Positions 1,331 through 44,644 of a stretch of DNA of 44,644 nucleotides are shown piece by piece. How positions within the stretch are numbered: the first letter of the stretch is position 1; each line of letters opens with the position of its first letter. The position numbers and the translations under genes were made by a program. The stretch covers positions 1 through 44,644 of IMG/VR virus record IMGVR_UViG_2563366806_000004; one strand, 5' to 3'. This DNA is from a virus. Taxonomy: Duplodnaviria > Heunggongvirae > Uroviricota > Caudoviricetes. The notes under the pieces were generated by a model, which saw only the letters and a list, made by a program, of their open reading frames with translations, did not search any database and was not told where the DNA came from.

Positions 1331-1345
1331 GCTTTTTTATACTAA
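1331..1345. other. attL: attL core (15-bp lambda common core GCTTTTTTATACTAA)
   Basis: Exact lambda core sequence at the junction between host ybhC flank and the phage P' arm. Confidence 0.85.
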
Positions 1346-1425
1346 GTTGTCATTATAAAAAAGCATTGCTTATCAATTTGTTGCAACGAACAGGTCACTA
1401 TCAGTCAAAATAAAATCATTATTTG
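1346..1425. promoter_or_regulatory. Lambda P' arm with arm-type Int binding sites
   Basis: Sequence GTTGTCATTATAAAAAAGCATTGCTTATCAATTTGTTGCAACGAACAGGTCACTATCAGTCAAAATAAAATCATTATTTG recognised as the lambda P' arm, including tandem arm-type sites. Confidence 0.7.
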
Positions 1426-2489
1426 ATTTCAATTTTGTCCCACTCCCTGCCTCTGTCATCACGATACTGTGATGCCATGGTGTCCGACTTATGCCCGAGA
1501 AGATGTTGAGCAAACTTATCGCTTATCTGCTTCTCATAGAGTCTTGCAGACAAACTGCGCAACTCGTGAAAGGTAGGCGGATCCCCTTCGAAGGAAAGAC
1601 CTGATGCTTTTCGTGCGCGCATAAAATACCTTGATACTGTGCCGGATGAAAGCGGTTCACGACGAGTAGATGCAATTATGGTTTCTCCGCCAAGAATCTC
1701 TTTGCATTTATCAAGTGTTTCCTTCATTGATATTCCGAGAGCATCAACATGCAATGCTGTTGGGATGGCAATTTTTACGCCTGTTTTGCTTTGCTCGACA
1801 TAAAGATATCCATCTACGATATCAGACCACTTCATTTCGCATAAATCACCAACTCGTTGCCCGGTAACAACAGCCAGTTCCATTGCAAGTCTGAGCCAAC
1901 ATGGTGATGATTCTGCTGCTTGATAAATTTTCAGGTATTCGTCAGCCGTAAGTCTTGATCTCCTTACCTCTGATTTTGCTGCGCGAGTGGCAGCGACAGG
2001 GTTTGTTGTTATATGGCCTTCAGCTATTGCCTCTCGGAATGCATCGCTCAGTGTTGATCTGATTAACTTGGCTGATGCCGCCTTGCCCTCGTCTATGTAT
2101 CCATTGAGCATTGCCGCAATTTCTTTTGTGGTGATGTCTTCAAGTGGAGCATCAGGCAGCCCCCTCCTTATTGCTTTAATTTTGCTCATGTAATTTATGA
2201 GTGTCTTCTGCTTGATTCCTCTGCTGGCGAGGATTTTTTCGTAGCGATCAAGCCATGAATGTAACGTAACGGAATTATCACTGTTGATTCTCGCTGTCAG
2301 AGGCTTGTGTTTGTGTCCTGAAAATAACTCAATGTTGGCCTGTATAGCTTCAGTGATTGCGATTCGCCTGTCTCGGCCTAATCCAAACTCTTTACCCGTC
2401 CTTGGGTCCCTGTAGCAGTAATATCCATTGTTTCTTATATAAAGGTTAGGGGGTAAATCCCGGCGCTCATGACTTCGCCTTCTTCCCAT
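1419..2489 (-). CDS. int: Tyrosine integrase, lambda Int
   Basis: 356-aa ORF starting MGRRRSHERRDLPPNLYIRNNGYY, recognised as lambda Int; directly adjacent to attL. Confidence 0.95.
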   Translation of the reverse strand: MGRRRSHERRDLPPNLYIRNNGYYCYRDPRTGKEFGLGRDRRIAITEAIQANIELFSGHKHKPLTARINSDNSVTLHSWLDRYEKILASRGIKQKTLINYMSKIKAIRRGLPDAPLEDITTKEIAAMLNGYIDEGKAASAKLIRSTLSDAFREAIAEGHITTNPVAATRAAKSEVRRSRLTADEYLKIYQAAESSPCWLRLAMELAVVTGQRVGDLCEMKWSDIVDGYLYVEQSKTGVKIAIPTALHVDALGISMKETLDKCKEILGGETIIASTRREPLSSGTVSRYFMRARKASGLSFEGDPPTFHELRSLSARLYEKQISDKFAQHLLGHKSDTMASQYRDDRGREWDKIEIK

Positions 2490-2685
2490 TTCTGATCCTC
2501 TTCAAAAGGCTACCTGTTACTGGTCGATTTAAGTCAACCTTTACCGCTGATTCGTGGAACAGATACTCTCTTCCATCCTTAACCGGAGGAGGGAATATCC
2601 TGCATTCGCGCACCCATCGACGAACTGTTTCAAGGCTTCTTGGACGTCGCTGGCGTGCGTTCCACTCCTGAAGTGTCAAGTACAT
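2467..2685 (-). CDS. xis: Excisionase, lambda Xis
   Basis: 72-aa ORF MYLTLQEWNARQRRPRSLETVRRWVRE, overlapping the int start by 23 nt as in lambda. Confidence 0.9.
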   Translation of the reverse strand: MYLTLQEWNARQRRPRSLETVRRWVRECRIFPPPVKDGREYLFHESAVKVDLNRPVTGSLLKRIRNGKKAKS

Positions 2686-2900
2686 CGCAAAGTCTCCGCA
2701 ATTACACGCAAGAAAAAACCGCCATCAGGCGGCTTGGTGTTATTTCAGTTCTTCAATTCGAATATTGGTTACGTCTGCATGTGCTATCTGCGCCCACAGC
2801 ATCCAGTGGTCATAGCAGTCGTTGATGTTCTCCGCTTCGATAACCCTGTTGAATGGCTCTCCATTCCATTCTCCTGTGACTCGGAAGTGCATTTATCATC

Positions 2901-2929
2901 TCCATAAAACAAAACTCGCCGTAGCGAGT
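2901..2929 (-). terminator. Putative intrinsic terminator downstream of the 132-aa gene
   Basis: Hairpin ACTCGC-cgta-GCGAGT followed on the minus strand by TTTGTTTTATGG. Confidence 0.45.
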
Positions 2930-2992
2930 TCAGATAAAAGAAATCCCCGCGAGTGCGAGGATTGTTATTCACCTTTGACGGCAAGTTGCAGG

Positions 2993-3391
2993 TTAGCCAT
3001 GGTTAACCTCCTGCTCAATATTTTTAAGGTCATTTTCCGCATACAGTATTGCAGTCCTTGCTGCTCGCAACCGTGCTTTGGTGTTCTTTTCTTCGCGCTC
3101 AAGGTTGGCTACAGACTCGCGCAACTCATCACGGCGACGATGGAGTTGCTCAATCTCAGTGACGATATGCTCACCATCAGTAGCTACCTGCAGGATGTGC
3201 TCGAAGGGGTCAATAACGCAGCCGCACTTTGTGCAACGAACAACGCGATCAGTTTCACAAACCTCGATAGCCCGATGCTTACAGCTATGTTGTATGTAGT
3301 TTTTTCTGTCAGTTACAGTGATGTTCAGCAGTTTCTCTTCATTGCGCTTTGGCTGCACCAGAGAGATGACGTTGTCGCTTTCATTTTCCAT
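2993..3391 (-). CDS. Hypothetical protein with Cys/His-rich putative zinc-binding region
   Basis: 132-aa ORF; start overlaps stop of upstream gene (ATGA); CKHRAIEVCETDRVVRCTKCGC cysteine cluster. Confidence 0.55.
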   Translation of the reverse strand: MENESDNVISLVQPKRNEEKLLNITVTDRKNYIQHSCKHRAIEVCETDRVVRCTKCGCVIDPFEHILQVATDGEHIVTEIEQLHRRRDELRESVANLEREEKNTKARLRAARTAILYAENDLKNIEQEVNHG

Positions 3392-4191
3392 TACTTCGCC
3401 TCCAGCGGAGGTTCTGGTAGCGGCATCCAGTGAGTTGCTTGCTCAATACCATTACCCGGCTTAATCATTGCATCTCCGCGCCGAAAGGTGCTTCCGGTAT
3501 AGCGTGCGGAGCATATTAGCGGTTCAACCAGAGAGCTATCGAAATTCACCGAAATAAGCACGTTCTGGCCCTTTTCAGGCATTCGCTCACTACAGCTTAT
3601 CCAACCATCCGGAGTTAACGGAGAGTTGCCACCCTGAACAGTAGGCATATCCGGACCTTTGCGAATCGCCCTGGCAAGATCGATTTGGTCGTCGTACAAC
3701 CAGTCACCTGTTTGCGGATGATTGGCTTCTGCCAATTGTGCAGCCCATTCAAGGCCGTCTTTGTGACCTTGCAGATAGTCCAGCGGTAACTCATCACTAT
3801 TACTTACAGGTTCGGCCTGAAGCATGGCGGCGCGATAGGCGTTCCAGCCGACAGCTTTTCCGTGTTCAAACGCGCTGTCAAAGTCATCATCAATTTCCAT
3901 CGCAGCGGGCACAGATACCGGCGCTGGCGGGGAGGCGTAAAGCGGCGTTACTTCTCGCAGCGGGTCGGCATAAGCATTGCCACTATCGAAGCTGACGTTG
4001 TTTTTTGCCCCGCCTCCTGACAGCAACCACGCCACCGGCTCCGCTTCGAGCGATGCCAGTGCGATACGCGCATTATTAATCAGGAGGCTATCAGCAGGAG
4101 ATAAAACAACATGAGCGTTTCCCTCCGCATCAATTTCAGAATTCGTAATTTTTCTGAACAGCTTTGCCAGTTCTCTGGTAATAGTGCTCAT
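3391..4191 (-). CDS. DUF551-like prophage protein
   Basis: 266-aa ORF; C-terminal region DGWISCSERMPEKGQNVLISV...THWMPLPEPP resembles the DUF551 domain common in enterobacterial prophages. Confidence 0.55.
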   Translation of the reverse strand: MSTITRELAKLFRKITNSEIDAEGNAHVVLSPADSLLINNARIALASLEAEPVAWLLSGGGAKNNVSFDSGNAYADPLREVTPLYASPPAPVSVPAAMEIDDDFDSAFEHGKAVGWNAYRAAMLQAEPVSNSDELPLDYLQGHKDGLEWAAQLAEANHPQTGDWLYDDQIDLARAIRKGPDMPTVQGGNSPLTPDGWISCSERMPEKGQNVLISVNFDSSLVEPLICSARYTGSTFRRGDAMIKPGNGIEQATHWMPLPEPPLEAK

Positions 4192-4466
4192 GGGCGAATC
4201 TCCGTCCTGCCACCAAGTAAGCGGATTGCCACTCGTTCCCGGAAGGTAAGCGGTCGATGGTGTCCGCGGGCATTAACAATTTCAGGCTTTCCATTAGGCG
4301 GATAATTGACTCTGACCGATTGACCATCTAGCGCGTGAGAAGCCTCGAGTAGTGCTGACTTTAAGTGCGCAGGGCACTCTTTCTGCACCCGCTCGCCGTC
4401 TGAAATGACACCTGCAATCCCCTGAAGCATGCTGGCTAAATTGCTGAGATAATTTTTCACATTCAC
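4188..4466 (-). CDS. Hypothetical protein
   Basis: 92-aa ORF, start/stop overlap with neighbours in a tightly packed leftward operon. Confidence 0.45.
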   Translation of the reverse strand: MNVKNYLSNLASMLQGIAGVISDGERVQKECPAHLKSALLEASHALDGQSVRVNYPPNGKPEIVNARGHHRPLTFRERVAIRLLGGRTEIRP

Positions 4467-4903
4467 TCTCCTTTACCGGTGCCATAGGCAGATAAGCACT
4501 CTTCAAATCCAGCCTGATTATCCGTTTGACCAAAACTGAAGCCATGCTGAAGACCATGACGAAATGCGCTATCTTGCAATTTATCTGCGGTTTCGAGCTT
4601 CGCCTCCAGTTCTGCTATGCGCTCTTCATAGCGAGCACCAACCGATACGGCTTTATGGAAGGCTTCGCACCACTTTGACGATTGCGCCTGCGTCTTCTCC
4701 AGCTCATCCAGCAGCGCCAGCACGGTAGTGGGGTTTGCTGCGGAGTTCAGCGCGTTCAAGGCAGTGATATCTGCATCAAGCTGAGGTCCTTCTGCCAGTG
4801 AGATATCGAAAATGTCATCAGGCGGCATAACACTAAGGCGCTCATGTGCGCCAACTGCTGCCGCTGCGATTTCACGCAGCGCCTGTTTGTCGATGTTGCT
4901 CAT
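4463..4903 (-). CDS. Ead/Ea22-like protein
   Basis: 146-aa ORF starting [16 protein letters not shown], coiled-coil; resembles Ead/Ea22-like proteins of E. coli prophages. Confidence 0.5.
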   Translation of the reverse strand: MSNIDKQALREIAAAAVGAHERLSVMPPDDIFDISLAEGPQLDADITALNALNSAANPTTVLALLDELEKTQAQSSKWCEAFHKAVSVGARYEERIAELEAKLETADKLQDSAFRHGLQHGFSFGQTDNQAGFEECLSAYGTGKGE

Positions 4904-5655
4904 TGGACTGCCTCCTGGCGGTCTATGCGTTCAATTTCGGCCAGAATAAGTGCGCCAGCTTTCACCAGGTCACGGCGTGGATTTGTCGGCTTCCACCATT
5001 CTGGTGTCCACGGCCAGTCAAATGGAATGCGGTTAAATGGATGGATGGCATTCAGTACGTAGCATGAGGATGCCCACAGTAACTGCGATTTGCTGTACTG
5101 GTCATCATGCTCAGGCGTCCATCCCTCAGCTGATTGATGGCGTTGACGCTCTGCAATTACTGACTGAACGGCATTGGATAGCGATTTCACACCCTGCGCA
5201 CGCACTTCAGCCAGGAAAGCATCGGTGGCTGGGGTTTCTGGAATGGCGTCTGGAATAACCTCTGAGTAGACGCGTTCCATTGCCGACTCCCATCCGTAGT
5301 AACAAGCCGAATAGCCGTCGCGCTGGTAGCCGTGGTCTTCAACTCCACATCCCATGCCCTGGTCATGGTATTCAGGCTGATTGTCGGGATTAATGCAGTA
5401 TTCAATGACCGACTTCATCCCCGCATTCTCCGCTGCCAGCGCAGTGCACTTGGCCTCAAGGTTATCAATCGTGATTCCAGCAGAACGACACTCCCGCAAC
5501 GCCGTTTCTAGTTTTGATTCAAGTTCACCGAACTTACGGACAAGATATTCAGCGTTTGTTTCGTTAACCTTTAAATCTCGTGGGATGCATTTACCTTTCA
5601 GAAAACCATCCATCTCAATTAGTGACATTTGTTTCATTTTTTCCCACTCCGCCAC
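4900..5655 (-). CDS. DUF550-domain protein (Ea22-like family)
   Basis: 251-aa ORF; C-terminal [10 protein letters not shown]...[33 protein letters not shown] resembles DUF550. Confidence 0.5.
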
Positions 5656-5816
5656 ATCGCATTCAGATGTTTGTTTTGATTTACTGACGGAAAAGAATTT
5701 CTCTTAAGCAATTCCTCTCTCGATGGCATTGGCTTTACGCGTTGGCGAATAATCATTTCTGCCGGAAGAATGCCGGGATTGTATGCAAGTCCTCTCATGG
5801 TAAATTCCTCAGTCAT
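5634..5816 (-). CDS. Small hypothetical protein (start uncertain)
   Basis: 60-aa reading frame from internal ATG whose start overlaps the stop of the upstream 98-aa gene (ATGACTGA); alternative longer ORF 5634..5981 overlaps that gene. Confidence 0.3.
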
Positions 5817-6105
5817 TACTGATAGCGCCATAGCGTGAGCGGTAATTACGCAGGCGCGGGTCGATATATTCAGGGAAGTGGGTATATGTGGCTTTGCGGA
5901 ATGGTCGGATTGATGTCTGGTAAATTCGCTCGCGTTCTTCTTTCTCTGCAAGCCATATACAATGGCGAAATTCCTTTTCATCTTTCGTTTCCTGCGGTAG
6001 AGACATTATCTGGTCGTAGTTTTTCCTGAATTTATCCAGCACCTCCGATACGGAATTGCCGGAACAGCGGCGCGGGTCATCCGCACCATACTGAGGCGCT
6101 GGCAT
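5809..6105 (-). CDS. Hypothetical protein
   Basis: 98-aa ORF in leftward operon. Confidence 0.45.
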
Positions 6106-6607: not shown

Positions 6608-7081
6608 CTAGAACGGAATATCCGAATCGTCGAAGTTCATAGGTGGTTCGCTGTGATCCCCCTGCTGCTGAGGTTGCTGTCTTTGTTGCTGACCGCTATT
6701 TCGCTGAGGAGAAGACTGTTCATTGCCTCCTTGCTTGCCACCAAGCATTTGCATGGTTCCACCAACGCCCACGATGACTTCGGTAGTGAACCGATCCTGT
6801 CCGCTTTGATCCTGCCATTTTCTTGTCCGCAATTTGCCTTCAAGATAAACCTCAGAGCCTTTTCGCAGATATTCGCTGGCAATTTCTGCCAGTTTCCCGC
6901 TCATTACCACGCGGTGCCACTCCGTCTGCTCCTTTTGCTCTCCAGTTTGCTTATCACGCCATTGTTCTGACGTAGCAACTGTAAGGTTTGCAAATGCCGT
7001 TCCTGATGGTGAATATCTGATTTCTGGATCATGCCCAAGGCGACCAATAATGATCACCTTATTTACGCCTCTGCTTGCCAT
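6608..7081 (-). CDS. ssb: Single-stranded DNA-binding protein
   Basis: 157-aa [26 protein letters not shown]...TEWHRVV...DIPF; closely resembles E. coli SSB including the acidic C-terminal tail. Confidence 0.9.
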
Positions 7082-7789
7082 TTATGCCGCCTGTTTTAGT
7101 TCGTTAACTCTGATGTTCATTACCTGAACGCATTTAGCCTGCGCCTCCTCGTTGCCAGCCATTAATTGCCAGTCACGCTGATAACGCTCGATGAGTTTTT
7201 TCTTGTCAGTTTCTGTTGACGCATAATCGCTGAAGTCTTTCAGGATTTGTTCGCAGTCAACCGATGGAGATTTCTGGTTGATATTTTCTGGTGATGGTTT
7301 GTTATCTGATGCTGGGATTGCCCATCCCGGAAGCGATGGAGGGAGCCAGTAAAATCCTGTTCCATCTTTCAGTTTTGCCCTGTGCCATCCCTGCTTTTTA
7401 TCGAGAGATGTTTGTGCGAAACCTTCCTCAAGGTTATACAGATACCGACCGATTCCCCACTGAACGGCAGCGCGCTTCATTGCACCGGAACGACCACCTT
7501 TGACGGCTTCTACCTGCGTGTTTTCAGCAGCATCCCATTTGGTTACCCATTCGGAATCAATCTTGATTGATATGCCGCATTCAACTCCGCCGTTGTTGGG
7601 AATATCGCGGTATTCATTGCGCCATCCTGCTTTGCCGCAAACATCGTCCAGGCGTTTCATGATTGCCCGGTTCGTGACATAAGCCAGCACCATAGCCCAC
7701 ACCTTGCCATCGCGTGTTTTACCGCTTTGCTGTATTCGCCATTCGATATCTTCAGGGCTGAATGGCTCATCGAATTTATTCAAATCCAT
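7082..7789 (-). CDS. Rad52/Sak-like single-strand annealing protein
   Basis: 235-aa ORF; region GGVECGISIKIDSEWVTKWDAAE...GAMKRAAVQWGIGRYLY resembles Rad52-family annealing proteins; occupies the position of lambda bet. Confidence 0.55.
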   Translation of the reverse strand: MDLNKFDEPFSPEDIEWRIQQSGKTRDGKVWAMVLAYVTNRAIMKRLDDVCGKAGWRNEYRDIPNNGGVECGISIKIDSEWVTKWDAAENTQVEAVKGGRSGAMKRAAVQWGIGRYLYNLEEGFAQTSLDKKQGWHRAKLKDGTGFYWLPPSLPGWAIPASDNKPSPENINQKSPSVDCEQILKDFSDYASTETDKKKLIERYQRDWQLMAGNEEAQAKCVQVMNIRVNELKQAA

Positions 7790-7797: not shown

Positions 7798-7986
7798 TCA
7801 GAATGGTAATTCGGATGGGGAGGAAAGAAATTCGCGCTCATTCATGCGCTCTCTTTGTGCTTGCCATAAACAAAGTTGTTTCTTTGATTTATCTCCCGCT
7901 TTACGCCAGTAACGAGCCTCAGCAATGTGATATTCTCTTTTTAATCGACTTAACTCTGGAGTTTTCGCCAGCTCTACCGGAATCAT
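7798..7986 (-). CDS. Hypothetical protein
   Basis: 62-aa basic ORF between the annealing-protein gene and the kil-like gene. Confidence 0.4.
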   Translation of the reverse strand: MIPVELAKTPELSRLKREYHIAEARYWRKAGDKSKKQLCLWQAQRERMNEREFLSSPSELPF

Positions 7987-8096
7987 TTAGACCTCCATTT
8001 TCTGTAGGCTTCGACGGCCTCACGAAACATCTTTTCATCGCCAATAAAAGTGGCGATAGTGAATTTAGTCTGAATAGCCATAAGTGTTTTATCCAT
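7983..8096 (-). CDS. kil: Kil-like host-killing protein
   Basis: MDKTLMAIQTKFTIATFIGDEKMFREAVEAYRKW closely resembles the lambda Kil N-terminus (MDQTLMAIQTKFTIATFIGDEKMFREAV); an in-frame upstream ATG at 8186 would give a 67-aa form. Confidence 0.55.
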   Translation of the reverse strand: MDKTLMAIQTKFTIATFIGDEKMFREAVEAYRKWRSK

Positions 8097-8259
8097 TTTT
8101 TGGAACTCTTGGCTGATTAAGTACGTCGATGAGTCGTTTCCATCCGTCACGTAATTTACGGGTGATTCGTTCAAGTAAAGATTCATTTAGTTGGAAGGCA
8201 CCCATGCGAGCGCCTCCCGCGATTGCGTAAATCATGGGTGGTTCCTTATGTTGGTTTTA

Positions 8260-9228: not shown

Positions 9229-9240
9229 ATATCCTCCATC

Positions 9241-9267
9241 AAAAAAATCGCCCTCACATCGGAGGGC
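9241..9267 (-). terminator. Intrinsic terminator upstream of the coiled-coil gene
   Basis: Stem GCCCTC/GAGGGC with 6-nt loop followed on the minus strand by a run of seven T. Confidence 0.55.
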
Positions 9268-9362
9268 AAAGAAGATTTCCAATAATCAGAACAAGTCGGC
9301 TCCTGTTTAGTTACGAGCGACATTGCTCCGTGTATTCACTCGTTGGAATGAATACACAGTGC

Positions 9363-9857: not shown

Positions 9858-9898
9858 TCTGTTGTTTATGCCAAAAATAAAGGCCGACTATGCGGCCT
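9858..9898. repeat. Direct repeat copy 1 (~40 bp, contains terminator hairpin)
   Basis: TCTGTTGTTTATGCCAAAAATAAAGGCCGACTATGCGGCCT, repeated with two differences at 10401..10439. Confidence 0.8.
9871..9898 (-). terminator. Intrinsic terminator after the 156-aa gene
   Basis: Stem AGGCCG/CGGCCT with loop ACTATG, followed on the minus strand by TTATTTTTGG. Confidence 0.55.
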
Positions 9899-10367: not shown

Positions 10368-10400
10368 ATCTCACCTCAAATAATTCAGTGCAGTGTTTAT

Positions 10401-10439: not shown

Positions 10440-10443
10440 GAAA

Positions 10444-37163: not shown

Positions 37164-37777
37164 TGGATATTTTATCAGCGATTTTTCGCCAGCAATCCCG
37201 GCGAATTGGAATATTAATCCCCAGCGTGGTTGTTTCTGAAAAGCATTCTGATGCGCTCGAAATTACTGAGCACCCGGTGGAGAAGCCAACAACGAATAGC
37301 GCTTCGGGCTTCATCGCCGATCATGCGTATAAGCGCCCAAGCGAAGTCACGATGGAATGCGGCTTCGCTGGTGGCGGTTCATTGCTGGACTTCATTGATA
37401 CATCGTCAATCGGCCTCAGCGCCGGACTTAGCCCGAAAGAGACATACCAAAAGCTGCTGGATATGCAGCTTGAGCGCGTACCGTTCGATGTGGTTACCGG
37501 GAAGAGGGTGTACACCAATATGCTGGTGCGTGCCATTGAGGTGACGACCGATAAAACCAGCGAGAACGTGCTGAACTGCACGCTTACCCTGCGTGAAGTG
37601 ATCATGTCGCAGACATTTAAAAAGCAGGTCGCAGATAAGTCGGATATGCAGGATGGTGTCAGTACGTCAGCAGTGCAGAATTCCGGGACGAAATCGGTTA
37701 CATCGGTGAATGATTCGCTCTTGGGGCAGGTCACGGGTGCGAGTAAGGTTGGCGGACGTTATCAGTTACCTTTCTAA
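37163..37777 (+). CDS. Putative tail/baseplate protein
   Basis: 204-aa ORF, ATGA overlap with the tape measure gene. Confidence 0.4.
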   Translation: MDILSAIFRQQSRRIGILIPSVVVSEKHSDALEITEHPVEKPTTNSASGFIADHAYKRPSEVTMECGFAGGGSLLDFIDTSSIGLSAGLSPKETYQKLLDMQLERVPFDVVTGKRVYTNMLVRAIEVTTDKTSENVLNCTLTLREVIMSQTFKKQVADKSDMQDGVSTSAVQNSGTKSVTSVNDSLLGQVTGASKVGGRYQLPF

Positions 37778-37787: not shown

Positions 37788-38093
37788 ATGCAGTTTAACG
37801 AAATACCGCTTTCTCCTGACAATCAGCAGTTCCGCGTTTTGCTGGGCAATACCACCTATACGCTCAGGATCATCTGGCGCGATGCGGCTGGCTGGATCAT
37901 GGACGTGATGGATAGCGGCGGTGCTGCGCTTCTTTCTGGCGTACCTCTACTGACCGGCGTGAACCTTTTACGACAATTTCCACAGCTTGGCATTGATGGT
38001 GCGCTGGTGGTGGCTACCGATAAGGGGGCACCAGACGAACCCACCAAAACCAACCTCGGCACATACAGCCACCTTATTTTCGTACAGGAGTAG
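37788..38093 (+). CDS. Putative tail/baseplate protein
   Basis: 101 aa from ATG 37788 with RBS upstream (track ORF begins at 37710). Confidence 0.4.
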   Translation: MQFNEIPLSPDNQQFRVLLGNTTYTLRIIWRDAAGWIMDVMDSGGAALLSGVPLLTGVNLLRQFPQLGIDGALVVATDKGAPDEPTKTNLGTYSHLIFVQE

Positions 38094-38095: not shown

Positions 38096-39157
38096 ATGTC
38101 TCTTAACTGGATGCGCCATTTTGAGCTGCAACTGTTGGACCAGAACGGGCAGGGCGTTTCCCTGTCTGACTTTAAGGTCACGTTCCAGATCGAGTGGGCA
38201 GACACACGCTGGCCGCGCGTGGCGAACGTGAAAATTTACAACCTTTCGACCGATACCACGAACAAGATACTGGGGCAGGAGTTTGCAAAAATTCGCATCA
38301 TTGCCGGGTATGACGGTATTGCGCCGGATGTTGATGCGAGCCAGGTTGGTGTCGCCCGGGAGATTTCACCAGACCAGGTAGGGCAGGTGAACGGTCAGAA
38401 CTACGGCCTGATATTTGACGGTGATATTCGCTTCACCGTCACCGGGAAGGACAACATTACGGATTCCTGGGTGCTGATTCAGGCCATCAGTAACCACGAA
38501 GCGTTCCTCTACGCGACTACCATCACCACGCTTGCCGCTGGCTATACCGTTGCGGATCTGCACCGGGCGACGATGCAGGATTTCAACGCGTTCGGCGTGA
38601 CGCAGGGCATTACCGGCGACTTTCCTGATACTGTGTTTCCTCGTGGCCGCGCGATTTACTCATCCACCCGTAACGTGATGGACAATATTGCTGCGCAGTG
38701 CAAAGCGACATGGCAGTTAGTGGATGGGCAGGTGCAGATGGTGCCGGAGGATAAATACATTCACGAAGCCATCGTGCTGAATGCCGATACTGGCCTGATC
38801 GGTATGCCGCAACAAACGATGGGCGGCGGAGTAAACGTGCGGTGCCTGATAAACCCAAACATCCGTATTAATGGTCTTATCCAGCTCGATCAGGCTTCGG
38901 TGTACCGCGCCGCGCTCGGCAATAGCGAAATCGCACAGTCGCCCGGGCGTATCACCGAAACAGAAGAGAACGGCAACCGTGTGCTGACCGGCACGACGTC
39001 ACAGGCTGCCAGCATTGCGACGGATGGCGTTTATATCGTCAAAGCTATCGACTATACTGGCGACACCAGAGGTCAGGCGTGGTACATGGATTTGATGTGT
39101 TTTGCGCGTGGCAGCCGCGATTTGCAGAGTAACGCATCACTTAACCGGACGTTTTAA
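38096..39157 (+). CDS. Putative baseplate hub-like protein
   Basis: 353-aa ORF in tail operon. Confidence 0.4.
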   Translation: MSLNWMRHFELQLLDQNGQGVSLSDFKVTFQIEWADTRWPRVANVKIYNLSTDTTNKILGQEFAKIRIIAGYDGIAPDVDASQVGVAREISPDQVGQVNGQNYGLIFDGDIRFTVTGKDNITDSWVLIQAISNHEAFLYATTITTLAAGYTVADLHRATMQDFNAFGVTQGITGDFPDTVFPRGRAIYSSTRNVMDNIAAQCKATWQLVDGQVQMVPEDKYIHEAIVLNADTGLIGMPQQTMGGGVNVRCLINPNIRINGLIQLDQASVYRAALGNSEIAQSPGRITETEENGNRVLTGTTSQAASIATDGVYIVKAIDYTGDTRGQAWYMDLMCFARGSRDLQSNASLNRTF

Positions 39158-39160: not shown

Positions 39161-39511
39161 ATGAAAAAACTCATCCTGATGATTGCTTGCAGCTCTTTTG
39201 TCTTGGCGGGCGTGGCTCATGCTGATTCCCAGTGTGGGCCTTTCCACTTGGGCACGAGCCCGACAAATGATGGATGGGCACGCATTAACGGTGCGAAGCC
39301 TGAAAGTCAGAAGGTAACGTTCCTTAAGCAAAAAGAAGACTACGAGAACATTAAGATGGAATGGCGCATGGCTACTGACCAGCCTGGAAGATGGGTTGGT
39401 CTTGAGTACATCAAGCGCAACGGCAAAGCCATTCTCAACGCACAGTGGTTGCAAGCCAGCATGGATGCGCCGCGTCAGTATGCAACATACGACTGCGTGA
39501 AGGTGAAATGA
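39161..39511 (+). CDS. Secreted small protein (accessory gene inside the baseplate operon)
   Basis: 116-aa ORF with cleavable signal peptide MKKLILMIACSSFVLAGVAHA-DS; two Cys in mature part; no structural-protein features. Confidence 0.55.
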   Translation: MKKLILMIACSSFVLAGVAHADSQCGPFHLGTSPTNDGWARINGAKPESQKVTFLKQKEDYENIKMEWRMATDQPGRWVGLEYIKRNGKAILNAQWLQASMDAPRQYATYDCVKVK

Positions 39512-39540
39512 TGATCCGCATCCTTAAACATCAATAATCG

Positions 39541-39583
39541 TTGATCTCGCGTTTTTATTATGCACTAATCTGTACATGTACAG
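39541..39583 (+). promoter_or_regulatory. Putative promoter and palindromic operator of the toxin-antitoxin operon
   Basis: Perfect 14-bp palindrome CTGTACATGTACAG at 39570..39583 overlapping candidate -10 TAATCT (39566..39571) with -35 TTGATC (39541..39546). Confidence 0.5.
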
Positions 39584-39593
39584 AGAGGGTGCC

Positions 39594-40007
39594 ATGAAAA
39601 TCATTACTTACACGCAAATGCGATCGGATTTATCTGCAACGCTGGACTGTTTACGCTCTGGTGAAAGCGTCACAGTTACGCAGCGCGGAAAGCCCGACCT
39701 TGTCATCAGTGCAAAATCAGTTGATGAAATCGCTTCCGCAGATGAGGTAAAAACATCTGCGAAAACAATAGACACGCATCTTGCGCAATTAATTGCATCG
39801 AATTTGTCACCACAGATAACGGAGGGTGTCATGAAGCTTACTAAGCAATTGGATGCCCTTCTTCAGTCTGATGAGGCTCGCCAGACTATGATGAAGGCCA
39901 CTAATGCAGCAGTTGCTTTGCAGGGCGTGTCTGAGTCATTTATCAAAGCTCTGCAACATACTCAGACCAAGCATGCGGACATCATAAAAAAACTGGAAGA
40001 TAAGTAA
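39594..40007 (+). CDS. phd: Phd/YefM-like antitoxin with extended C-terminal region
   Basis: 137 aa from ATG 39594; N-terminal MKIITYTQMRSDLSATLDCLRSGESVTVTQRGKPDLVISAKSVDE resembles Phd/YefM; stop overlaps doc start. Confidence 0.6.
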   Translation: MKIITYTQMRSDLSATLDCLRSGESVTVTQRGKPDLVISAKSVDEIASADEVKTSAKTIDTHLAQLIASNLSPQITEGVMKLTKQLDALLQSDEARQTMMKATNAAVALQGVSESFIKALQHTQTKHADIIKKLEDK

Positions 40008-40414
40008 TGACTGAGATTACATTCCTTTCGGTAGATGAGGTCATCGCTATTCAGAAGAGCACATTGCCAAATAGCGGACAACCAGACCGGGGAAAACTCG
40101 AAGGTGCCCTCAATCGCGTCGATAACTTACGCATGTATGAAGGATGTGAGGATTTATTTAAATTTGCAGCTATGTACATGGTTGCGATAGCGAAGTCTCA
40201 CGCTTTTAATGACGCCAATAAGCGAACGGCTTTCCAGGCCGCCAGCGTGTTTTTGCTTTTGAATGGCTATGAACTGAATACCTCAATGGAGTTAGTCAAG
40301 CTGACCATCTTTGCTGCTACGGGAGAGGCCGACTGCGATAACACTGCTTTGGCGCTTAAACTTTTGTCAGATTATAAGAATGAGCTGCTGGCAGATACGA
40401 TAACTGGCTACTGA
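40007..40414 (+). CDS. doc: Doc (death-on-curing) Fic-family toxin
   Basis: 135-aa ORF; HAFNDANKRTAFQAASVFLLLNGYEL resembles the P1 Doc Fic-like motif (HIFNDANKRTALNSALLFLRRNG). Confidence 0.75.
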   Translation: MTEITFLSVDEVIAIQKSTLPNSGQPDRGKLEGALNRVDNLRMYEGCEDLFKFAAMYMVAIAKSHAFNDANKRTAFQAASVFLLLNGYELNTSMELVKLTIFAATGEADCDNTALALKLLSDYKNELLADTITGY

Positions 40415-40437
40415 TAGCAAAAAGTAAATTGTACACA

Positions 40438-40461
40438 ACCCGCCGCCGAGCGGGTTTTTTT
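40438..40461 (+). terminator. Intrinsic terminator after doc
   Basis: Stem ACCCGC/GCGGGT, loop CGCCGA, followed by TTTTTTT. Confidence 0.6.
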
Positions 40462-40472
40462 ATGGAGTTTTT

Positions 40473-41213
40473 ATGCCAATTCCAACTCAATCACAGATCG
40501 GCGGCGAGCAGCAGACCGCGCAGGCCATAGCCGATTCGGTGTCTACCCAGATGCGCGTAGCGATGCCAGGCATCATTCAGTCGTTCGATCCTGACGCTGT
40601 AACCTGCACAGTAGAAGTGGCGCTTCGCGGTATTGTTGGCGACGGCTCCACCGAATTAAAACCGCTGGTGGATGTTCCTGTCATCTTCCCGCGCGGCGGC
40701 GGCTGCACGCTGACCTTTCCGGTTAAAGAAGGCGACGAGTGCCTGCTGCTCTTTGCCGACCGTTGCATCGATTTCTGGTGGCAGAGCGGCGGCGTGCAGG
40801 AGACCGTCGACCCGCGCCAGCATGACTTATCTGATGCGTTCGCCATCGTTGGCCCACAGTCGCAAGCACGGAAAATCAGCGGTATCAGTACCAGCGCCGC
40901 GCAGCTGCGAACCGATGATGGTGCGGCGTTTGTAGAAGTCGCCGCAGGACATAACATCACCATTAAAACACCGGGCCAGCTTACAGCTACGGCTGAAGGT
41001 GGAACGACAATCACATCCCCGACTATCACGCTGAACGGCAACGTAACGATTAATGGCAACTTGTCTCAGGGAATGGGCGAAAGCGGCGGTACTGCGACGA
41101 TGCTTGGGCCGGTGACGGTAACGAATGACGTAACAGCTTCTGGTATCAGTGTCGCCACGCATAAACATGGCGGAGTACAGACTGGCGGGGGAACTACCGG
41201 AGGGCCGCAATAA
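40473..41213 (+). CDS. Baseplate central spike protein (Gp138 N-terminal-domain-like)
   Basis: 246-aa ORF; LVDVPVIFPRGGGCTLTFPVKEGDECLLLFADRCIDFWW resembles the Gp138_N domain; C-terminal Gly/Thr-rich repeats. Confidence 0.5.
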   Translation: MPIPTQSQIGGEQQTAQAIADSVSTQMRVAMPGIIQSFDPDAVTCTVEVALRGIVGDGSTELKPLVDVPVIFPRGGGCTLTFPVKEGDECLLLFADRCIDFWWQSGGVQETVDPRQHDLSDAFAIVGPQSQARKISGISTSAAQLRTDDGAAFVEVAAGHNITIKTPGQLTATAEGGTTITSPTITLNGNVTINGNLSQGMGESGGTATMLGPVTVTNDVTASGISVATHKHGGVQTGGGTTGGPQ

Positions 41214-41566
41214 TGCGATACCGTCGCGAAGATACTGAAGGCGATTACACTTTCGGCCAGGGTGACGATACTTTCCTTATCGACAGTCCGGAATGTGTCG
41301 CCCAGGCCGTAAAAACCCGTTTCGAGCTGTGGCGCGGTCAGTGGTTTCTCGATCTGACGGAAGGCACGCCGTATGTTCAGTCAGTGCTTGGGAAGCAGCG
41401 ATCAGATGTCTACATCCTGGCTATACGCGAACGCATACAGGATACACCGGGCGTTCTGTCGATTCTTTCCTTCGATACCAATTATGACGGCACCAGCCGA
41501 CGCGTCACTTTCACTTCCTCCATTGACACAATCTACGGCCAGACGACTGTAAAAAGCGAGGCATAA
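41213..41566 (+). CDS. Putative baseplate protein
   Basis: 117-aa ORF between spike and baseplate-J-like genes, ATGA overlap. Confidence 0.4.
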   Translation: MRYRREDTEGDYTFGQGDDTFLIDSPECVAQAVKTRFELWRGQWFLDLTEGTPYVQSVLGKQRSDVYILAIRERIQDTPGVLSILSFDTNYDGTSRRVTFTSSIDTIYGQTTVKSEA

Positions 41567-42766
41567 ATGGCTTTGAACCTCGACACGCTGGGGCTATCGG
41601 CAACGGTAACCGCCCAGGGGATTAGTGCGCCTGATTACCAGACAATCCTAGATACACTGACCAGCTATTTCAGGCAGATTTACGGTAGTGATGCCTACCT
41701 CGAACCAGACAGCAAAGACGGGCAGATGGTCGCGCTGGTGGCTCTTGCCGTGCATGACGCTAACAACACCGCTATCGGGATCTACAACTCTTTTTCACCG
41801 ACGACAGCGCAGGCCGCAGCGCTTAGCAGCAATGTGAAAATTAACGGGATCACGCGAAAAGTAGCGACAAACTCTACTGCTGACCTTCTGTTAACCGGTA
41901 CGGCAGGCACGACTATCACGAATGGCTCCGCACGGGATAAAAACGGCATTATCTGGAATTTTCCCGCAAGTGTAGCGATCGGCGTTGATGGTACTGTGCT
42001 GGTGACGGCCACATGTGCGAATAGCGGTTCGGTTGCTGCGATGGCCGGGACTATCACCACCATTAATACACCGACTCGCGGCTGGGTGTCGGTAACCAAC
42101 CCGGCTGCGGCTACTGTCGGATCACCAGCTGAAACCGACGCAGAGCTGCGCATTCGGCAGGGGCAAAGCGTCGCGCTACCATCGATCACACCGTTTGAAG
42201 GTGTCGACGGTGCAATAGCTAACGTTGCTGGCGTGACACGTCACAAGTTGTATGAGAACGACACAGGAACAACAGACAGCAACGGGCTGCCGCCGCACTC
42301 AATTTCCGCCATCGTCGATGGTGGGGATGTTACCGAAATAGCCCAGACCATCAGGGGGAATAAAGGACAGGGAACGGCAACCTACGGGACAACTTCTGTC
42401 ACGGTGCCGGATACTTATGGTAATCCTCACGTCATCAGTTTTTCGCGCTCTACCGACGTACCGATTTTCGTAGCCATTACCCTGAAAGTTTTTACCGGGT
42501 ATACCTCTCAAATCGGCGAGCAGATCAAACAGGCTGTTGCCGACTATATTAATGGCCTGACAATTGGCGACGACGTTCTGCTGAGCCGTATTTATTCCCC
42601 GGCAAACCTCGGCGTTGTGAGCGGCGGGAATGCCCGCTATTACGATATTACCGACCTGCTGATCGGTAAGTCGTCTGGCAGCGTATCGGCATCAAACATT
42701 GATATTGCCTATGATGCTTCAGCGTTCTGTAGCACCGCGAATATCAGTATCACGGTGACCTCATGA
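41567..42766 (+). CDS. Baseplate J-like protein
   Basis: 399-aa ORF in the position and size expected of baseplate J; followed by tail fibre genes. Confidence 0.45.
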   Translation: MALNLDTLGLSATVTAQGISAPDYQTILDTLTSYFRQIYGSDAYLEPDSKDGQMVALVALAVHDANNTAIGIYNSFSPTTAQAAALSSNVKINGITRKVATNSTADLLLTGTAGTTITNGSARDKNGIIWNFPASVAIGVDGTVLVTATCANSGSVAAMAGTITTINTPTRGWVSVTNPAAATVGSPAETDAELRIRQGQSVALPSITPFEGVDGAIANVAGVTRHKLYENDTGTTDSNGLPPHSISAIVDGGDVTEIAQTIRGNKGQGTATYGTTSVTVPDTYGNPHVISFSRSTDVPIFVAITLKVFTGYTSQIGEQIKQAVADYINGLTIGDDVLLSRIYSPANLGVVSGGNARYYDITDLLIGKSSGSVSASNIDIAYDASAFCSTANISITVTS

Positions 42767-43443
42767 GCAAATACACCGAACTGATCACTAACTACCACGC
42801 TACCAAGCCACTCTTTTTTGACCATATAGATCTGAGCACCCGCCCGCTGATTGATGTGTCCAGCACTATGTCAGGGCTTATAACAGCCTTCGATATCGAT
42901 ACTGCTGTCGGTGTACAGCTCGACATCCTCGGTCTGTGGATCGGACGCAGTCGCATAGTCAGCCAGCCAATTAGCGGAGTTTATTTCAGCTGGGACACTG
43001 ACGGGCTTGGGTATGACCAGGGCATCTGGCAAGGGCCATATGATCCTGATTCTGGCTATACGACGCTAAGCGATGAGACGTACCGCATCATTCTGAAAGC
43101 GAAAATCGCTATCAACAACTGGGACGGTCGGAACGACTCTCTGCCTCCCATCCTTGACGCTGCTACCGCAGGCTCAGGCCTGAGGATGCAGATCGTCGAC
43201 AACCAGGACATGACGATTTCGGTCTGGGTTTTCCCTGAAACTGATATTTCTGATGTGTCTCTCGAACTGATCGCCGCTATCAAACATGGCTATCTCACCG
43301 TTAAATCAGCTGGCGTATGGGCCGGTGATGTTGAAACGCCTTCGGTAGAAACACCGTCAGAAGGCTCTAAATTCTTTGGGTTTGATATGGATAACGAATA
43401 CATCGGCGGGTTCGATGTTGGAGCATGGGGGACAATACTCTAA
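42763..43443 (+). CDS. Putative baseplate/tail protein
   Basis: 226-aa ORF, ATGA overlap, immediately upstream of the tail fibre gene. Confidence 0.4.
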   Translation: MSKYTELITNYHATKPLFFDHIDLSTRPLIDVSSTMSGLITAFDIDTAVGVQLDILGLWIGRSRIVSQPISGVYFSWDTDGLGYDQGIWQGPYDPDSGYTTLSDETYRIILKAKIAINNWDGRNDSLPPILDAATAGSGLRMQIVDNQDMTISVWVFPETDISDVSLELIAAIKHGYLTVKSAGVWAGDVETPSVETPSEGSKFFGFDMDNEYIGGFDVGAWGTIL

Positions 43444-44207
43444 TGGCAATAAACAACTTTAAACCTTTCGCGCTTGATCCGAACGCTAACGTCACCTCAC
43501 AAGCTGACTGGGAAGCACTTCCGGCTCTGCTTTCAGGGTTTACGGCAGGTAAAGCATCCAGCGCACAGGTCAACAAAGCTATTCGGCAAGCCAGCTTTAT
43601 CGCGGCAGCGTTGGCGCAGTACACCGCCAACAAAAGCAGGCTGGATGTGCTTGATGATGGAGACCTGAACGGGTTTATATCCAAAATGGGGACCGCTTTC
43701 GGGAAAGATTTCCAGGCGCTTGACGCCACGCTGACGGCATTGGCTGGTCTAGCAACTGGTGCAAATAAACTCCCGTATTTCACTGGAACTGATAAAGCAG
43801 CTCAGACTGATTTAACTTCTGTTGGCCGTGACATTATTGGGAAAAATACTATTGCTGACATTCTCACATACCTTGGTTTGGGAGAAGCGGCGAAAAGGAA
43901 TGTGGGGACTGGGGCGAATCAGATACCTGATATGTCATCATATGCATCAGGTTCAGGCTGGCGAAAAATGCCAGATGGTTCAATTGAACAGTGGGGACGA
44001 ATTAATTTCCCGACTAACGCCGCGGCGGTATCTACAAATGTGACTTTCCCCATTCCTTTTACGCAGGAGCCAGACGTAGTGATTGTATATGACGGCGGTT
44101 TTGGTGGTGGGAATATGTGGGGCGCAACTAACTGGACGAAAACAGGTTTCGTTGCTCATTGTAACTATGGCTTTGAAGGTGGAGCCTTCTACGCGAAAGG
44201 GCGTTAA
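43443..44207 (+). CDS. Tail fibre protein
   Basis: 254 aa from ATG 43443 (overlaps upstream stop); MAINNFKPFALDPNANVTSQADW N-terminus; followed by assembly protein gene. Confidence 0.55.
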   Translation: MAINNFKPFALDPNANVTSQADWEALPALLSGFTAGKASSAQVNKAIRQASFIAAALAQYTANKSRLDVLDDGDLNGFISKMGTAFGKDFQALDATLTALAGLATGANKLPYFTGTDKAAQTDLTSVGRDIIGKNTIADILTYLGLGEAAKRNVGTGANQIPDMSSYASGSGWRKMPDGSIEQWGRINFPTNAAAVSTNVTFPIPFTQEPDVVIVYDGGFGGGNMWGATNWTKTGFVAHCNYGFEGGAFYAKGR

Positions 44208-44209
44208 TT

Positions 44210-44644
44210 ATGAAATATTTGTATGTTGATAATCTGGCGTACCCTTATGCCCTCCAGTCTGTTTACGCTGCAAAAGGCCAATGGCCCGAAGGTAAAGGCG
44301 TGGATATAGACGAAGCTATTTTCAGGGAATATTTCCATGATACGCCGCCTGACGGTAAGTACAGAATTACCGGAGACGATGGAATGCCAGCATGGGCAGA
44401 TGTTCCACCGCCAACACGTGAAGAACAAATTGCATCAGCCGAAACTAAAAAGCAGCAATTGATTAATCAGGCCAACGATTATATGAACAGTAGACAATGG
44501 GTTGGTAAAGCGGCTATTGGTCGTCTGAAAGGTGAGGAACTGGCGCAATATAATTTGTGGCTGGATTATCTGGACGCACTGGAGCTGGTCGATACTTCCA
44601 GTGCACCAGATATTGAATGGCCGGAAGAACCAGACACAATGTAA
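44210..44644 (+). CDS. Tail fibre assembly protein (Tfa-like)
   Basis: 144-aa ORF directly after the tail fibre gene; ends with stop at the window edge. Confidence 0.55.
   Translation: MKYLYVDNLAYPYALQSVYAAKGQWPEGKGVDIDEAIFREYFHDTPPDGKYRITGDDGMPAWADVPPPTREEQIASAETKKQQLINQANDYMNSRQWVGKAAIGRLKGEELAQYNLWLDYLDALELVDTSSAPDIEWPEEPDTM

Follow-up and report, generated by a model that had tools for sequence, protein, structure and literature searches.

Among the described phages that come closest to the element reported here, the Salmonella phage SEN34 (genus Brunovirus) combines lambda-like early genes with a long contractile tail seen by electron microscopy, and a new lambda cluster, "temperate 26", has been proposed with it as the prototype (PMC5261728). 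Among the contractile-tail phages with solved structures, the cyanophage Pam3 is presented as a minimal myophage whose baseplate is simple (PMC9942802), and in a 2026 study a phage induced from urinary Escherichia coli, nearest to vB_EcoM-683R1, was imaged as a myovirus (PMC12945033). Lambdoid myoviruses of this type have been described since 2017, and the present analysis leaves the current understanding unchanged. The stretch of DNA analysed here (the window) covers positions 1 to 44,644 of the virus record IMGVR_UViG_2563366806_000004, which an initial annotation had read as a mosaic prophage at the lambda attachment site (attB-lambda), joining lambda regulatory genes to a non-lambda tail and baseplate. 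This reading held up, in such a way that a single lambda-type attL/attR pair brackets a continuous element with a lambdoid gene order. With a probability of about 0.88, we consider that the prophage is one contiguous, apparently intact lambdoid temperate phage of about 43.6 kb, integrated at attB-lambda and carrying SEN34-type virion genes for a contractile tail.

The left end of the element and its integration genes are the following:

1-1284, minus strand: host gene ybhC, an open reading frame (ORF) of 427 residues, 99.2% identical in amino acids to ybhC of strain J53, of the K-12 lineage, over the 249 residues available; chromosomal flank, outside the prophage
1331-1345, plus strand: core of attL, the 15-bp O region of lambda, GCTTTTTTATACTAA, an exact match
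1346-1418, plus strand: P' arm of attL, with one base different from the lambda P' arm
1419-2489, minus strand: int, lambda integrase allele, 356 residues, 99.4% identical to lambda Int
2467-2685, minus strand: xis, lambda excisionase allele, 72 residues, 98.6% identical to lambda Xis

No occurrence of the core was expected by chance in a comparable search. Homology to the lambda attP starts at this core, save for one aligned base 2 nt to its left, and then runs at around 99% through the P' arm, int and xis; such a break of the alignment at the core reads as the signature of an attL (BOP') junction. The start of the element had been placed at 1331, which is exactly the first base of the lambda att core. 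Comparison by blastn of positions 537-2968 with the lambda prophage of strain J53, a full lambda prophage at the same site that served as the lambda reference throughout, gave 99.1% identity.

The right end had been said to lie outside the window, and it was indeed found there on the 3.7-Mb scaffold of the draft assembly GCA_000350685.1, which is identical to the window over an 11,202-nt overlap. A second copy of the 15-bp core is located 299 nt beyond base 44644 (positions 11501-11515 of the scaffold segment compared) and is followed on its 3' side by the B' arm, ybhB, bioA and bioBFCD. Because the attR core lies at this distance past the window end, the prophage spans the equivalent of positions 1331-44957, around 43.6 kb, with one integrase and one att pair. 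The P arm of attR is of the lambda type, with the P1 and P2 arm sites of Int conserved and 228 of the 255 aligned positions identical, so that identical 15-bp cores, P and P' arms, and cognate Int and Xis proteins at 99% identity to lambda, all the components of the lambda Int/attB-lambda system, are present. Despite this identity of Int and Xis, the approximately 70 nt of the P arm that adjoin the core show clear divergence (P arm at 11306-11515 of the same segment, or 104-313 nt beyond base 44644). The distance from the fibre assembly gene to the attR core is only around 300 nt, leaving the phage with essentially no "b region".

As the source is a draft scaffold, and E. coli genomes typically hold several lambdoid prophages (a median of 2 matching places per genome), the junction between the early and late halves could be thought of as an assembly chimera, generated by the collapse of two lambdoid prophages sharing sequence. 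We regard this as extremely improbable, given that the window and the 3.7-Mb scaffold are identical over the 11.2 kb checked and that the genes on either side, ybhC and ybhB-bioA, are those that should flank attB-lambda. Moreover, the complete genome NZ_LR536431.1 carries this type of element between the same two flanks, together with a lambda-type int and xis, and a second genome, that of strain 81, matches a query running from the spike gene to attR and ybhB with 85% coverage; NZ_CP088131.1 is probably another same-site case.

From position 23487 rightward all the genes of this single prophage are on the plus strand. They start with a packaging, head and neck module (23487-32674), recognized through Pfam and PHROG terminase matches and showing 75-98% amino acid identity to gp2-gp12 of SEN34, and continue with the tail, the baseplate and the fibre:

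23487-23960, plus strand: small terminase (DUF2280), at the start of the packaging module
within the packaging module, plus strand: large terminase, 95% identical to that of SEN34
25585-27054, plus strand: portal (Phage_portal_3), 94% identical to that of SEN34
in the head module after the portal, plus strand: Mu-F-like head morphogenesis protein and a DUF2213 protein, from Pfam
28916-29419, plus strand: cement or minor capsid protein of the XM1-gp53/E217-gp24 family
29431-30372, plus strand: major capsid protein (PF09950), 97% identical to that of SEN34
after the capsid gene, plus strand: DUF4054 and other connector proteins, from Pfam
about 32126-32674, plus strand: neck terminator, from Pfam
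32678-33838, plus strand: tail sheath (Pfam DUF3383, 6e-104; in the PDB, XM1 gp6 at 3e-35 and the Pam3 sheath at 4e-26, over Pam3 residues 5-381, almost the full length), 65% identical to that of SEN34
33849-34289, plus strand: tail tube (Pfam PF11681, 6e-60; in the PDB, the Pam3 tube at 4e-10)
34293-34718, and to 34906 with the -1 frame, plus strand: tail assembly chaperone (Pfam Phage_TAC_15, 5e-33)
34896-37163, plus strand: tape measure with a C-terminal lytic transglycosylase domain (Pfam SLT, 2e-24; weak PhageMin_Tail)
37163-37777, plus strand: Dit-like protein (Pfam Dit_like, 9e-29)
37788-38093, plus strand: plug (Pfam Pam3_gp18, 2e-24)
38096-39157, plus strand: hub (Pfam E217_GP41, 6e-6, just under the curated cutoff)
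39161-39511, plus strand: conserved protein of 116 residues (phrog_3443)
40473-41213, plus strand: central spike (Pfam PF18352, 3e-41, and a GpV Apex motif; in the PDB, E217 gp43, Pam3 gp20 and P2 gpV)
41213-41566, plus strand: sheath initiator or gp25-like wedge protein (Sheath_initiator, from the annotation of the source scaffold)
41567-42766, plus strand: wedge protein (Pfam Baseplate_J), 83% identical to that of SEN34
42763-43443, plus strand: wedge-1 protein (Pfam DUF2612)
43443-44207, plus strand: tail fibre (Pfam Gp53-like_C), 45% identical to lambda Stf over 129 residues
44210-44644, plus strand: tail fibre assembly protein, complete, 144 residues (Caudo_TAP, 1e-32), 36% identical to lambda Tfa over 69 residues

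The sheath and tube are homologous to those of solved tails, and hub and plug, spike, gp25-like initiator, J-type wedge, second wedge and fibre are all present. The sheath-like, tube-like, gp138-like spike and baseplate-J-like genes named in the initial annotation, and the contractile type of tail deduced from them, were in this way borne out by the Pfam families (DUF3383, PF11681, PF18352 with Apex, Baseplate_J), by the PDB matches to solved myovirus tails and by collinearity with SEN34; PF18352 is the family that we take to be the phi92 gp138 N-terminal domain. Among the wedge proteins, matches to structures were also obtained in the PDB (XM1 gp16, Pam3 gp22 and E217 gp44). In the chaperone gene, overlapping canonical -1 slippery heptamers (A AAT TTT / T TTT TTG) at 34664-34673 are a candidate frameshift site, and the -1 frame is open at 34604-34906, up to the start of the tape measure, with a DUF6889 ORF called at the corresponding place in the source scaffold; the layout corresponds, as far as it can be read from the DNA, to the usual programmed frameshift arrangement of the G/GT type, here in a contractile-tail module. 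For the fibre, the longest-ORF start at 43425 is wrong, whereas the protein that begins at 43443 is exactly that of the gene called in the source scaffold.

When the ORFs of the window were compared with SEN34 by tblastn, 24 consecutive collinear matches were obtained, from the large terminase to the N-terminus of the fibre, with amino acid identities of 34-98% (48-98% apart from the conserved 116-residue protein). Both phages share the lambdoid early layout, the same myovirus virion operon and a small variable slot between the hub and spike genes. SEN34 differs in its own integrase and att site, its Exo/Bet/Gam recombination set, its O/P replication pair, another Q, holin and small terminase, and in having an O-acetyltransferase moron and no Phd-Doc pair. 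At the DNA level, 17,673 of the 43,314 prophage bases in the window (about 41%) align to SEN34 by blastn, with 88.8% identity in the head genes. The genus criterion of the ICTV is around 70% or more nucleotide similarity over the genome (as used in PMC12945033), and the element falls below it for Brunovirus.

With Vibrio phage XM1, cyanophage Pam3 and Pseudomonas phage E217, the prophage shares the families of the cement, sheath, tube, plug, hub, spike and wedge proteins, but the homology is distant (E-values from 1e-6 to 1e-35), the hosts are others, and the comparison covered these virion protein families. From these families the expected particle would be a myovirus in which an HK97-fold capsid with a cement protein is joined to a "minimal" contractile tail like those of XM1, Pam3 and E217. 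It might still be argued that the tail is non-contractile, siphovirus-like, and that contraction was wrongly deduced from domain names, several of the families being DUFs and contraction itself not being readable from a sequence. This we find hardly credible, since the sheath matches solved contractile sheaths over nearly its full length, sheath initiator, wedge and spike proteins accompany it, and SEN34, with 65% identity in the sheath and 97% in the capsid, was imaged with a contractile sheath (PMC5261728).

Upstream of this operon, the prophage follows the lambdoid order of att-int-xis, recombination, N, cI/cro, cII, replication, nin, Q, lysis and virion genes, with divergent pL and pR, as deduced from the ORF map, Pfam and the comparison with lambda. 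Its regulatory and replication elements are as follows:

7983-8096, minus strand: kil, 91% amino acid identity to lambda over 34 residues
8089-8235, minus strand: cIII, with the cIII core ESLLERITRKLRDGWKRLID conserved
11094-11426, minus strand: N antiterminator, 92% identical in amino acids to lambda N over 106 residues, 97% in DNA
11695-11709, minus strand: nutL boxB GCCCTGAAGAAGGGC, exactly the lambda nutL boxB
11768-11828: OL, three 15-bp operators (motif AYCAC-N5-GTGDT) overlapping a pL-like promoter
11915-12556, minus strand: cI-type repressor with helix-turn-helix domain and S24 self-cleaving peptidase (Pfam HTH_3/HTH_31; Peptidase_S24, 3e-25), a non-lambda allele with 34% identity to lambda cI
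12562-12623: OR operators between cI and cro, exact at 12562-12576 and 12609-12623, with a one-mismatch site between them that was read by eye from the sequence
12661-12876, plus strand: cro-type repressor (Pfam HTH_3, 1e-12), with no significant blastp match to lambda Cro
12885-12916, plus strand: nutR boxA CGCTCTTA and boxB GCCCTGAAAAAGGGC, exact motifs
12996-13274, plus strand: cII, a diverged allele (59% amino acid identity), with its ATG at the lambda-homologous position
13940-14782, plus strand: O-like initiator (Pfam Phage_rep_O, 4e-36), its N-terminus 48% identical to lambda O
14785-15678, plus strand: DnaC/IstB-type helicase loader in place of lambda P (Pfam IstB_IS21, 1e-18, and Bac_DnaA), with no match to P
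19365-19988, plus strand: Q late antiterminator, lambda allele, 207 residues, 99.5% identical (Pfam Antiterm, 1e-57)
20031-20059, plus strand: late promoter pR', TTGACT-17-TAAATT, with lambda qut-region DNA, from a scan; lambda-like DNA reaches to 20088
20091-20118, plus strand: intrinsic terminator with an 11-bp stem, from a scan

The operator motif has six matches in the window, which correspond to five distinct sites (one is matched on both strands), all of them in the two immunity intergenic regions, against 0.46 matches expected by chance. The antitermination systems characteristic of lambdoid phages are both there, N/nut with exact boxA and boxB at nutR and boxB at nutL, and Q with pR' followed by a terminator. 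Homology to lambda ends around 30 nt past pR', and the strong terminator follows directly. By analogy with lambda, the LexA-like cI bound to the three-part OL and OR operators would keep the prophage silent, and its self-cleavage upon SOS induction would let pL and pR fire; N would then antiterminate at the lambda-type nutL and nutR sites, cII, cIII and Kil would act as they do in lambda, the O-like initiator and the DnaC-type loader would replicate the DNA, and the lambda Int and Xis would excise the genome. In the late phase, lambda Q acting at the lambda pR'/qut would read through the adjacent terminator, giving a single long rightward transcript over the lysis genes and the whole virion operon. 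In this manner a lambda Q/pR' cassette appears to drive a wholly unrelated virion operon.

The likeness to lambda is concentrated in few places, in such a way that only 4,318 of the 43,314 prophage bases in the window (around 10%) align to it by blastn, well below the genus criterion of around 70% or more for Lambdavirus. The aligned segments are these:

1331-2968: att, int, xis and the next small ORF, 99%
7994-8184: kil/cIII, 93%
9229-9362: between the coiled-coil ORF and the next gene, matching just downstream of lambda ea10, 96%
9858-9891 and 10386-10432: two short pieces flanking the ORF at 9897-10367, 94% and 90%
11170-11473: N, 97%
11665-11759: nutL, 97% (96.8%)
12883-12998: nutR-tR1 to the start of cII, 99%
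13987-14130: N-terminal part of the O-like gene, 70%
16228-16301: a short piece after ren, 99%
17173-17450 and 17994-18049: ninE and ninF, 94-96%
19355-20088: Q and pR', 97% (97.4%)
parts of S and Rz: lysis genes, 73-75%

At the protein level, Int (99.4%), Xis (98.6%), Q (99.5%), N (92%), NinE (92%), Kil (91%) and S (81%) are near-identical or close to their lambda counterparts, and cII (59%), NinH (54%), Rz (52%), the N-terminus of O (48%), Ren (43%), NinB (39%) and cI (34%) are diverged alleles. By tblastn and blastp against the J53 lambda prophage, Cro, the helicase loader, the recombination proteins and the endolysin gave no significant match, and the packaging, head, tail and baseplate proteins gave no tblastn match, with the exception of the tail fibre and its assembly protein. 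The list of lambda-like functions first drawn up (int/xis, kil, N/nut, cII, NinB/E/H, Q/pR' and S) has to be amended accordingly: Int, Xis, Kil, N/nut, NinE and Q/pR' are near-identical and S is related, but cII, NinB and NinH are diverged and not lambda-like at the DNA level. That immunity, replication, recombination and endolysin are heterologous was right, as seen in the 34% identity of cI, the unrelated Cro, the set of Rad52-type protein, single-stranded DNA-binding protein (SSB) and Abc2, the IstB/DnaC-type loader and an endolysin without a match to lambda R. The same statement made for all the virion genes applies to packaging, head, tail and baseplate, but not to the fibre and fibre-assembly genes with their 45% and 36% identities to Stf and Tfa; apart from these two exchangeable genes, no structural gene aligns to the siphovirus proteins of lambda.

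In summary of the comparison with lambda, the two phages share the attachment site and att core, near-identical Int, Xis, N, nutL, nutR, Q and pR', related Kil, cIII, NinE, S and Rz, and the order of the regulatory genes. They differ in the alleles for immunity, recombination, helicase loading and endolysin, and in a head, tail and baseplate set that is unrelated to lambda, whose tail is of the siphovirus type. The shared segments of 97-99% identity would offer crossover points for recombination with lambda.

For the early half, the best single match is a P22-like podovirus with a tail spike, Escherichia phage CurroJimenez_Bas106 (Bas106), with 99.2% DNA identity over 57% of positions 1-22000; the shared part includes the recombination genes, N and the immunity region, as well as cII, the T5orf172 ORF, O and the DnaC-like loader. 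Bas106 differs in its podovirus structural genes, its integration module and its Q, and has tRNA genes in the interval from pR' to the holin, where the prophage has a reverse ORF. Coverage of at least 80% of the early half was not reached by any record of the phage or complete-E. coli collections searched. For the late half, the closest isolated phages are Citrobacter phage Omnitron, which covers 82% of it at 96.2% identity (99.5% in the sheath; the record is unannotated), and Escherichia phages vB_EcoM-689R2, 611R5, 683R1 and 606R2, which cover 43% at 86%; neither Omnitron nor these isolates appear among the 25 best matches of the early half. The genome thus reads as a three-way mosaic of lambda integration and antitermination cassettes, P22-like early alleles and SEN34/Omnitron-type myovirus structural genes, with breakpoints that coincide with gene or regulatory-site boundaries. 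The guanine-plus-cytosine (GC) content is around 43-47% in the early region versus around 52-56% from Q onward, with 56% in the head genes.

This step in GC content, together with the different best database matches of the two halves, would also fit two separate elements lying next to each other, one a lambdoid remnant that runs from att through the lysis genes, the other an independent element of myovirus type or an R-type tailocin cluster. We consider this very improbable. The whole region has a single integrase and a single attL/attR pair, and the late half lacks an integrase, a repressor and replication genes of its own but does have terminase, portal and capsid genes, which tailocins lack; in addition, the same join between lysis genes and terminase occurs in isolated phages and in other prophages.

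Of 5,426 complete E. coli genomes, 15 carry at least 80% of the late half and 56 (around 1%) match part of the segment with the spike and the baseplate slot (39161-41213), at least one of them at attB-lambda as here. In NZ_CP109924.1 the same virion module is found in a prophage at argW with a different integrase, and the combination of this module with lambdoid early genes, judged from these comparisons, is not unusual, being found in isolated phages as well. The full combination of lambda Int/att and Q/pR', Bas106-type immunity and replication, and SEN34-type virion was not present whole in the phage or complete-E. coli collections searched. The same-site sibling of NZ_LR536431.1 (3474601-3524600) has the same virion module with a different large terminase (PBSX family) and an invertible-fibre arrangement (a recombinase with opposed fibre and assembly genes), and several of its structural genes are frameshifted, with an ISL3 insertion besides. 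Its differences show that mosaicism extends inside the virion module and that decay is visible in the lineage.

The prophage is in this respect a fully delimited case of modular phage evolution of a textbook type, in which the cassettes of a single genome come from phages with three types of tail, the long flexible tail of lambda, the short tail of P22-like phages and the contractile tail of SEN34. For annotation purposes, it indicates that a lambda int at attB-lambda does not imply a lambda-type particle or a lambda-type host range.

Several points weigh against an intact phage. The small terminase (DUF2280) has no counterpart in SEN34, although the large terminase is 95% identical, so that their compatibility is assumed; ninF is split by an HNH endonuclease gene; the Pfam matches of the hub (E217_GP41) and of the Phd antitoxin fall just under the curated cutoffs; and induction, particle formation and contraction of this element are predictions made from its DNA. 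The packaging signal (cos or pac) was not identified in the prophage, as neither was that of SEN34 by its authors (PMC5261728). Some of these points suggest the alternative of a defective prophage with this same architecture, domesticated or decaying, for instance through incompatible mosaic joints or missense damage that the ORFs do not reveal, and the many frameshifts and the insertion sequence (IS) element in the same-site sibling of NZ_LR536431.1 show that decay is common in the lineage. Among the alternatives considered, this is by far the most probable, and we judge it unlikely. No disruption of an essential gene is visible by inspection of the ORFs and comparison with lambda and SEN34, the ORFs for essential lambdoid and virion functions being full length; the two att sites and the operators are intact, and so are the nut sites, pR', the frameshift site of the chaperone and the dual-start holin; and the same DUF2280 small terminase adjoins this head module in the argW prophage of NZ_CP109924.1. 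The nin region, where ninF lies, is dispensable in lambda. An apparently intact phage, predicted to be inducible, is the reading that we favour.

The baseplate operon of this phage tolerates a variable gene slot, bounded by positions 39511 and 40473, between the conserved 116-residue gene and the spike gene, which is occupied here by a toxin-antitoxin pair:

39594-40007, plus strand: Phd/YefM-like antitoxin, 137 residues (Pfam PhdYeFM, 1.5e-6, N-terminal, under the curated cutoff)
40007-40414, plus strand: Doc toxin (Pfam Fic/DOC, 1.5e-11; PHROG Doc-like toxin, 1.5e-33)

The Fic-fold motif of Doc, HxFx(D/N)(A/G)NKR, is intact as HAFNDANKR and the antitoxin ORF overlaps doc by one base, as in type II Phd-Doc systems; the pair is named Phd/YefM antitoxin and death-on-curing toxin by the NCBI Prokaryotic Genome Annotation Pipeline (PGAP) in two other genomes. 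The Phd of P1 has around 73 residues, in such a way that the antitoxin of 137 residues is about twice the usual length. The GC content of the pair is 44.5%, versus 52-53% in its flanks. Phd-Doc occupies the slot in just 2 of the 56 complete E. coli genomes matching this baseplate region; it is absent from SEN34, which has two small unknown genes there, and the other relatives carry a DUF4236 protein, small hypothetical proteins or an IS element with antirepressor fragments. From this comparison the slot looks like a site of variable cargo within the late operon. As a tentative proposal, which we hold to be possible and no stronger than that, a viable, inducible myovirus using the lambda attachment site would carry in its baseplate operon this low-GC cassette with its long antitoxin, expressed from the prophage as a stabilisation or abortive-infection (anti-phage) module.

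The remaining genes of the early-left region, on the minus strand, include the recombination set:

2740-6105, minus strand: accessory early-left genes of "ea/b-region" type, comprising a lambdap35-like ORF, a DUF551 protein, an Ead/Ea22-like protein, unknowns and Abc2 (Pfam DUF551, Ead_Ea22)
5809-6105, minus strand: Abc2 anti-RecBCD protein (Pfam Anti-RecBCD_p2, 8e-61)
6608-7081, minus strand: SSB (Pfam SSB, 1e-38)
7082-7789, minus strand: Rad52/Rad22-type single-strand annealing protein (Pfam Rad52_Rad22, 5e-26)

The first ORF (2740-2892) is 98% identical to a lambda orf by tblastn, and the Rad52-type annealing protein, SSB and Abc2 occupy the place of exo-bet-gam of lambda. Between cIII and the N-proximal genes lies a coiled-coil protein rich in Glu, Ala, Lys and Arg (8260-9228, minus strand; 322 residues, or 340 from an upstream TTG), which belongs to phrog_1376/21365, of unknown function, and has no Pfam match; it is common in P22-like early regions, and its relatives are named "cell envelope biogenesis protein TolA" by PGAP. 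The stretch of lowest GC content of the window is 10001-11000, with 38.6%. Two unknown ORFs at 9897-10893 (minus strand), of 156 residues (phrog_1636) and 149 residues (phrog_3054, with hydrophobic stretches suggesting a membrane protein), occupy part of the interval from cIII to N, upstream of N when read on the plus strand. This part of the early-left region holds ral and sieB in lambda, which makes the two ORFs candidates for exclusion or anti-defence functions; neither has a Pfam or PADLOC match. A PADLOC scan of ten accessory ORFs found no known defence system, and only the Doc and T5orf172 proteins matched candidate systems, weakly or in part; the window contained no tRNA gene by tRNA scan and no match to Rfam families at the gathering thresholds.

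The right arm, from cII to the packaging genes, further includes:

13309-13953, plus strand: ORF with a T5orf172/MUG113 (GIY-YIG-like) nuclease domain between cII and O, 214 residues (Pfam T5orf172, 1e-15; MUG113, 7e-16)
15675-19368, plus strand: nin region, including a ren-like gene (43% by tblastn to lambda) and unknowns
16759-17169, plus strand: ninB, 39%
17166-17348, plus strand: ninE, 92%
17345-17524 and 17994-18054, plus strand: split ninF, pieces with 81% and 65%
17487-17993, plus strand: first HNH endonuclease gene of the nin region, 168 residues
18047-18556, plus strand: second HNH endonuclease gene, with NUMOD4 and HNH_3 domains
within the nin region (15675-19368), plus strand: YbcO/DUF1364-like gene, listed between the second HNH gene and RusA
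18821-19183, plus strand: RusA (Pfam RusA)
19180-19368, plus strand: ninH, 54%
20164-20580, minus strand: moron ORF of 138 residues, with a coiled coil and a Cys4 (CxxC...CxxC) zinc ribbon (phrog_1244, 6e-26, function unknown)
20830-21153, plus strand: S holin with a Met-Lys-Met dual start as in lambda (Pfam Phage_holin_3_1), 81% identical to lambda S
21137-21586, plus strand: lysozyme-type endolysin (Pfam Phage_lysozyme), with no significant match to lambda R
21583-22050, plus strand: Rz spanin (Pfam Phage_lysis), 52% identical to lambda Rz
22220-22774, plus strand: Rha-family regulator (Pfam Phage_pRha, 8e-31), in a region 95.6% identical to phage phi80
22799-23455, plus strand: putative phage metallopeptidase (Pfam PhageMetallopep, 1e-42)

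In PADLOC, the N-terminal domain of the T5orf172 ORF matches both the candidate defence protein PDC-S57 (4.5e-29) and the PD-Lambda-1 C-terminal domain, and the ORF has the same position in Bas106 and in the argW prophage of NZ_CP109924.1.

The interruption of ninF is due to an insert of 543 bp (17451-17993) between the codons for ...HVCE(H/R)C and CAELMSDP.... The gene is left as an N-terminal fragment of 59 residues that ends in a new tail, plus a C-terminal fragment orphaned in a different frame. The insert looks like the insertion of a free-standing homing endonuclease. A group I intron or an intein was rejected, since the HNH ORF takes up all but 36 of the 543 nt, the three reading frames are different, and no Rfam intron was found. 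The second HNH gene, 30% identical to the first over 50 residues, is directly 3' of the ninF remnant, where lambda has ninG, and the related phages Louie and Dewey are annotated with four HNH genes in the nin region.

Close to the holin, a further reverse ORF (20577-20915) was rejected as a second moron and is probably spurious: it overlaps the holin start, its N-terminal part matches the antisense strand of lambda S, and its sole PHROG match is weak. The interval from pR' to the holin (20089-20830, 742 bp), in which the moron ORF is located, is 99% identical in phages HK225 and Louie, and relatives carry tRNA-Asn and tRNA-Thr in this same interval, downstream of Q.

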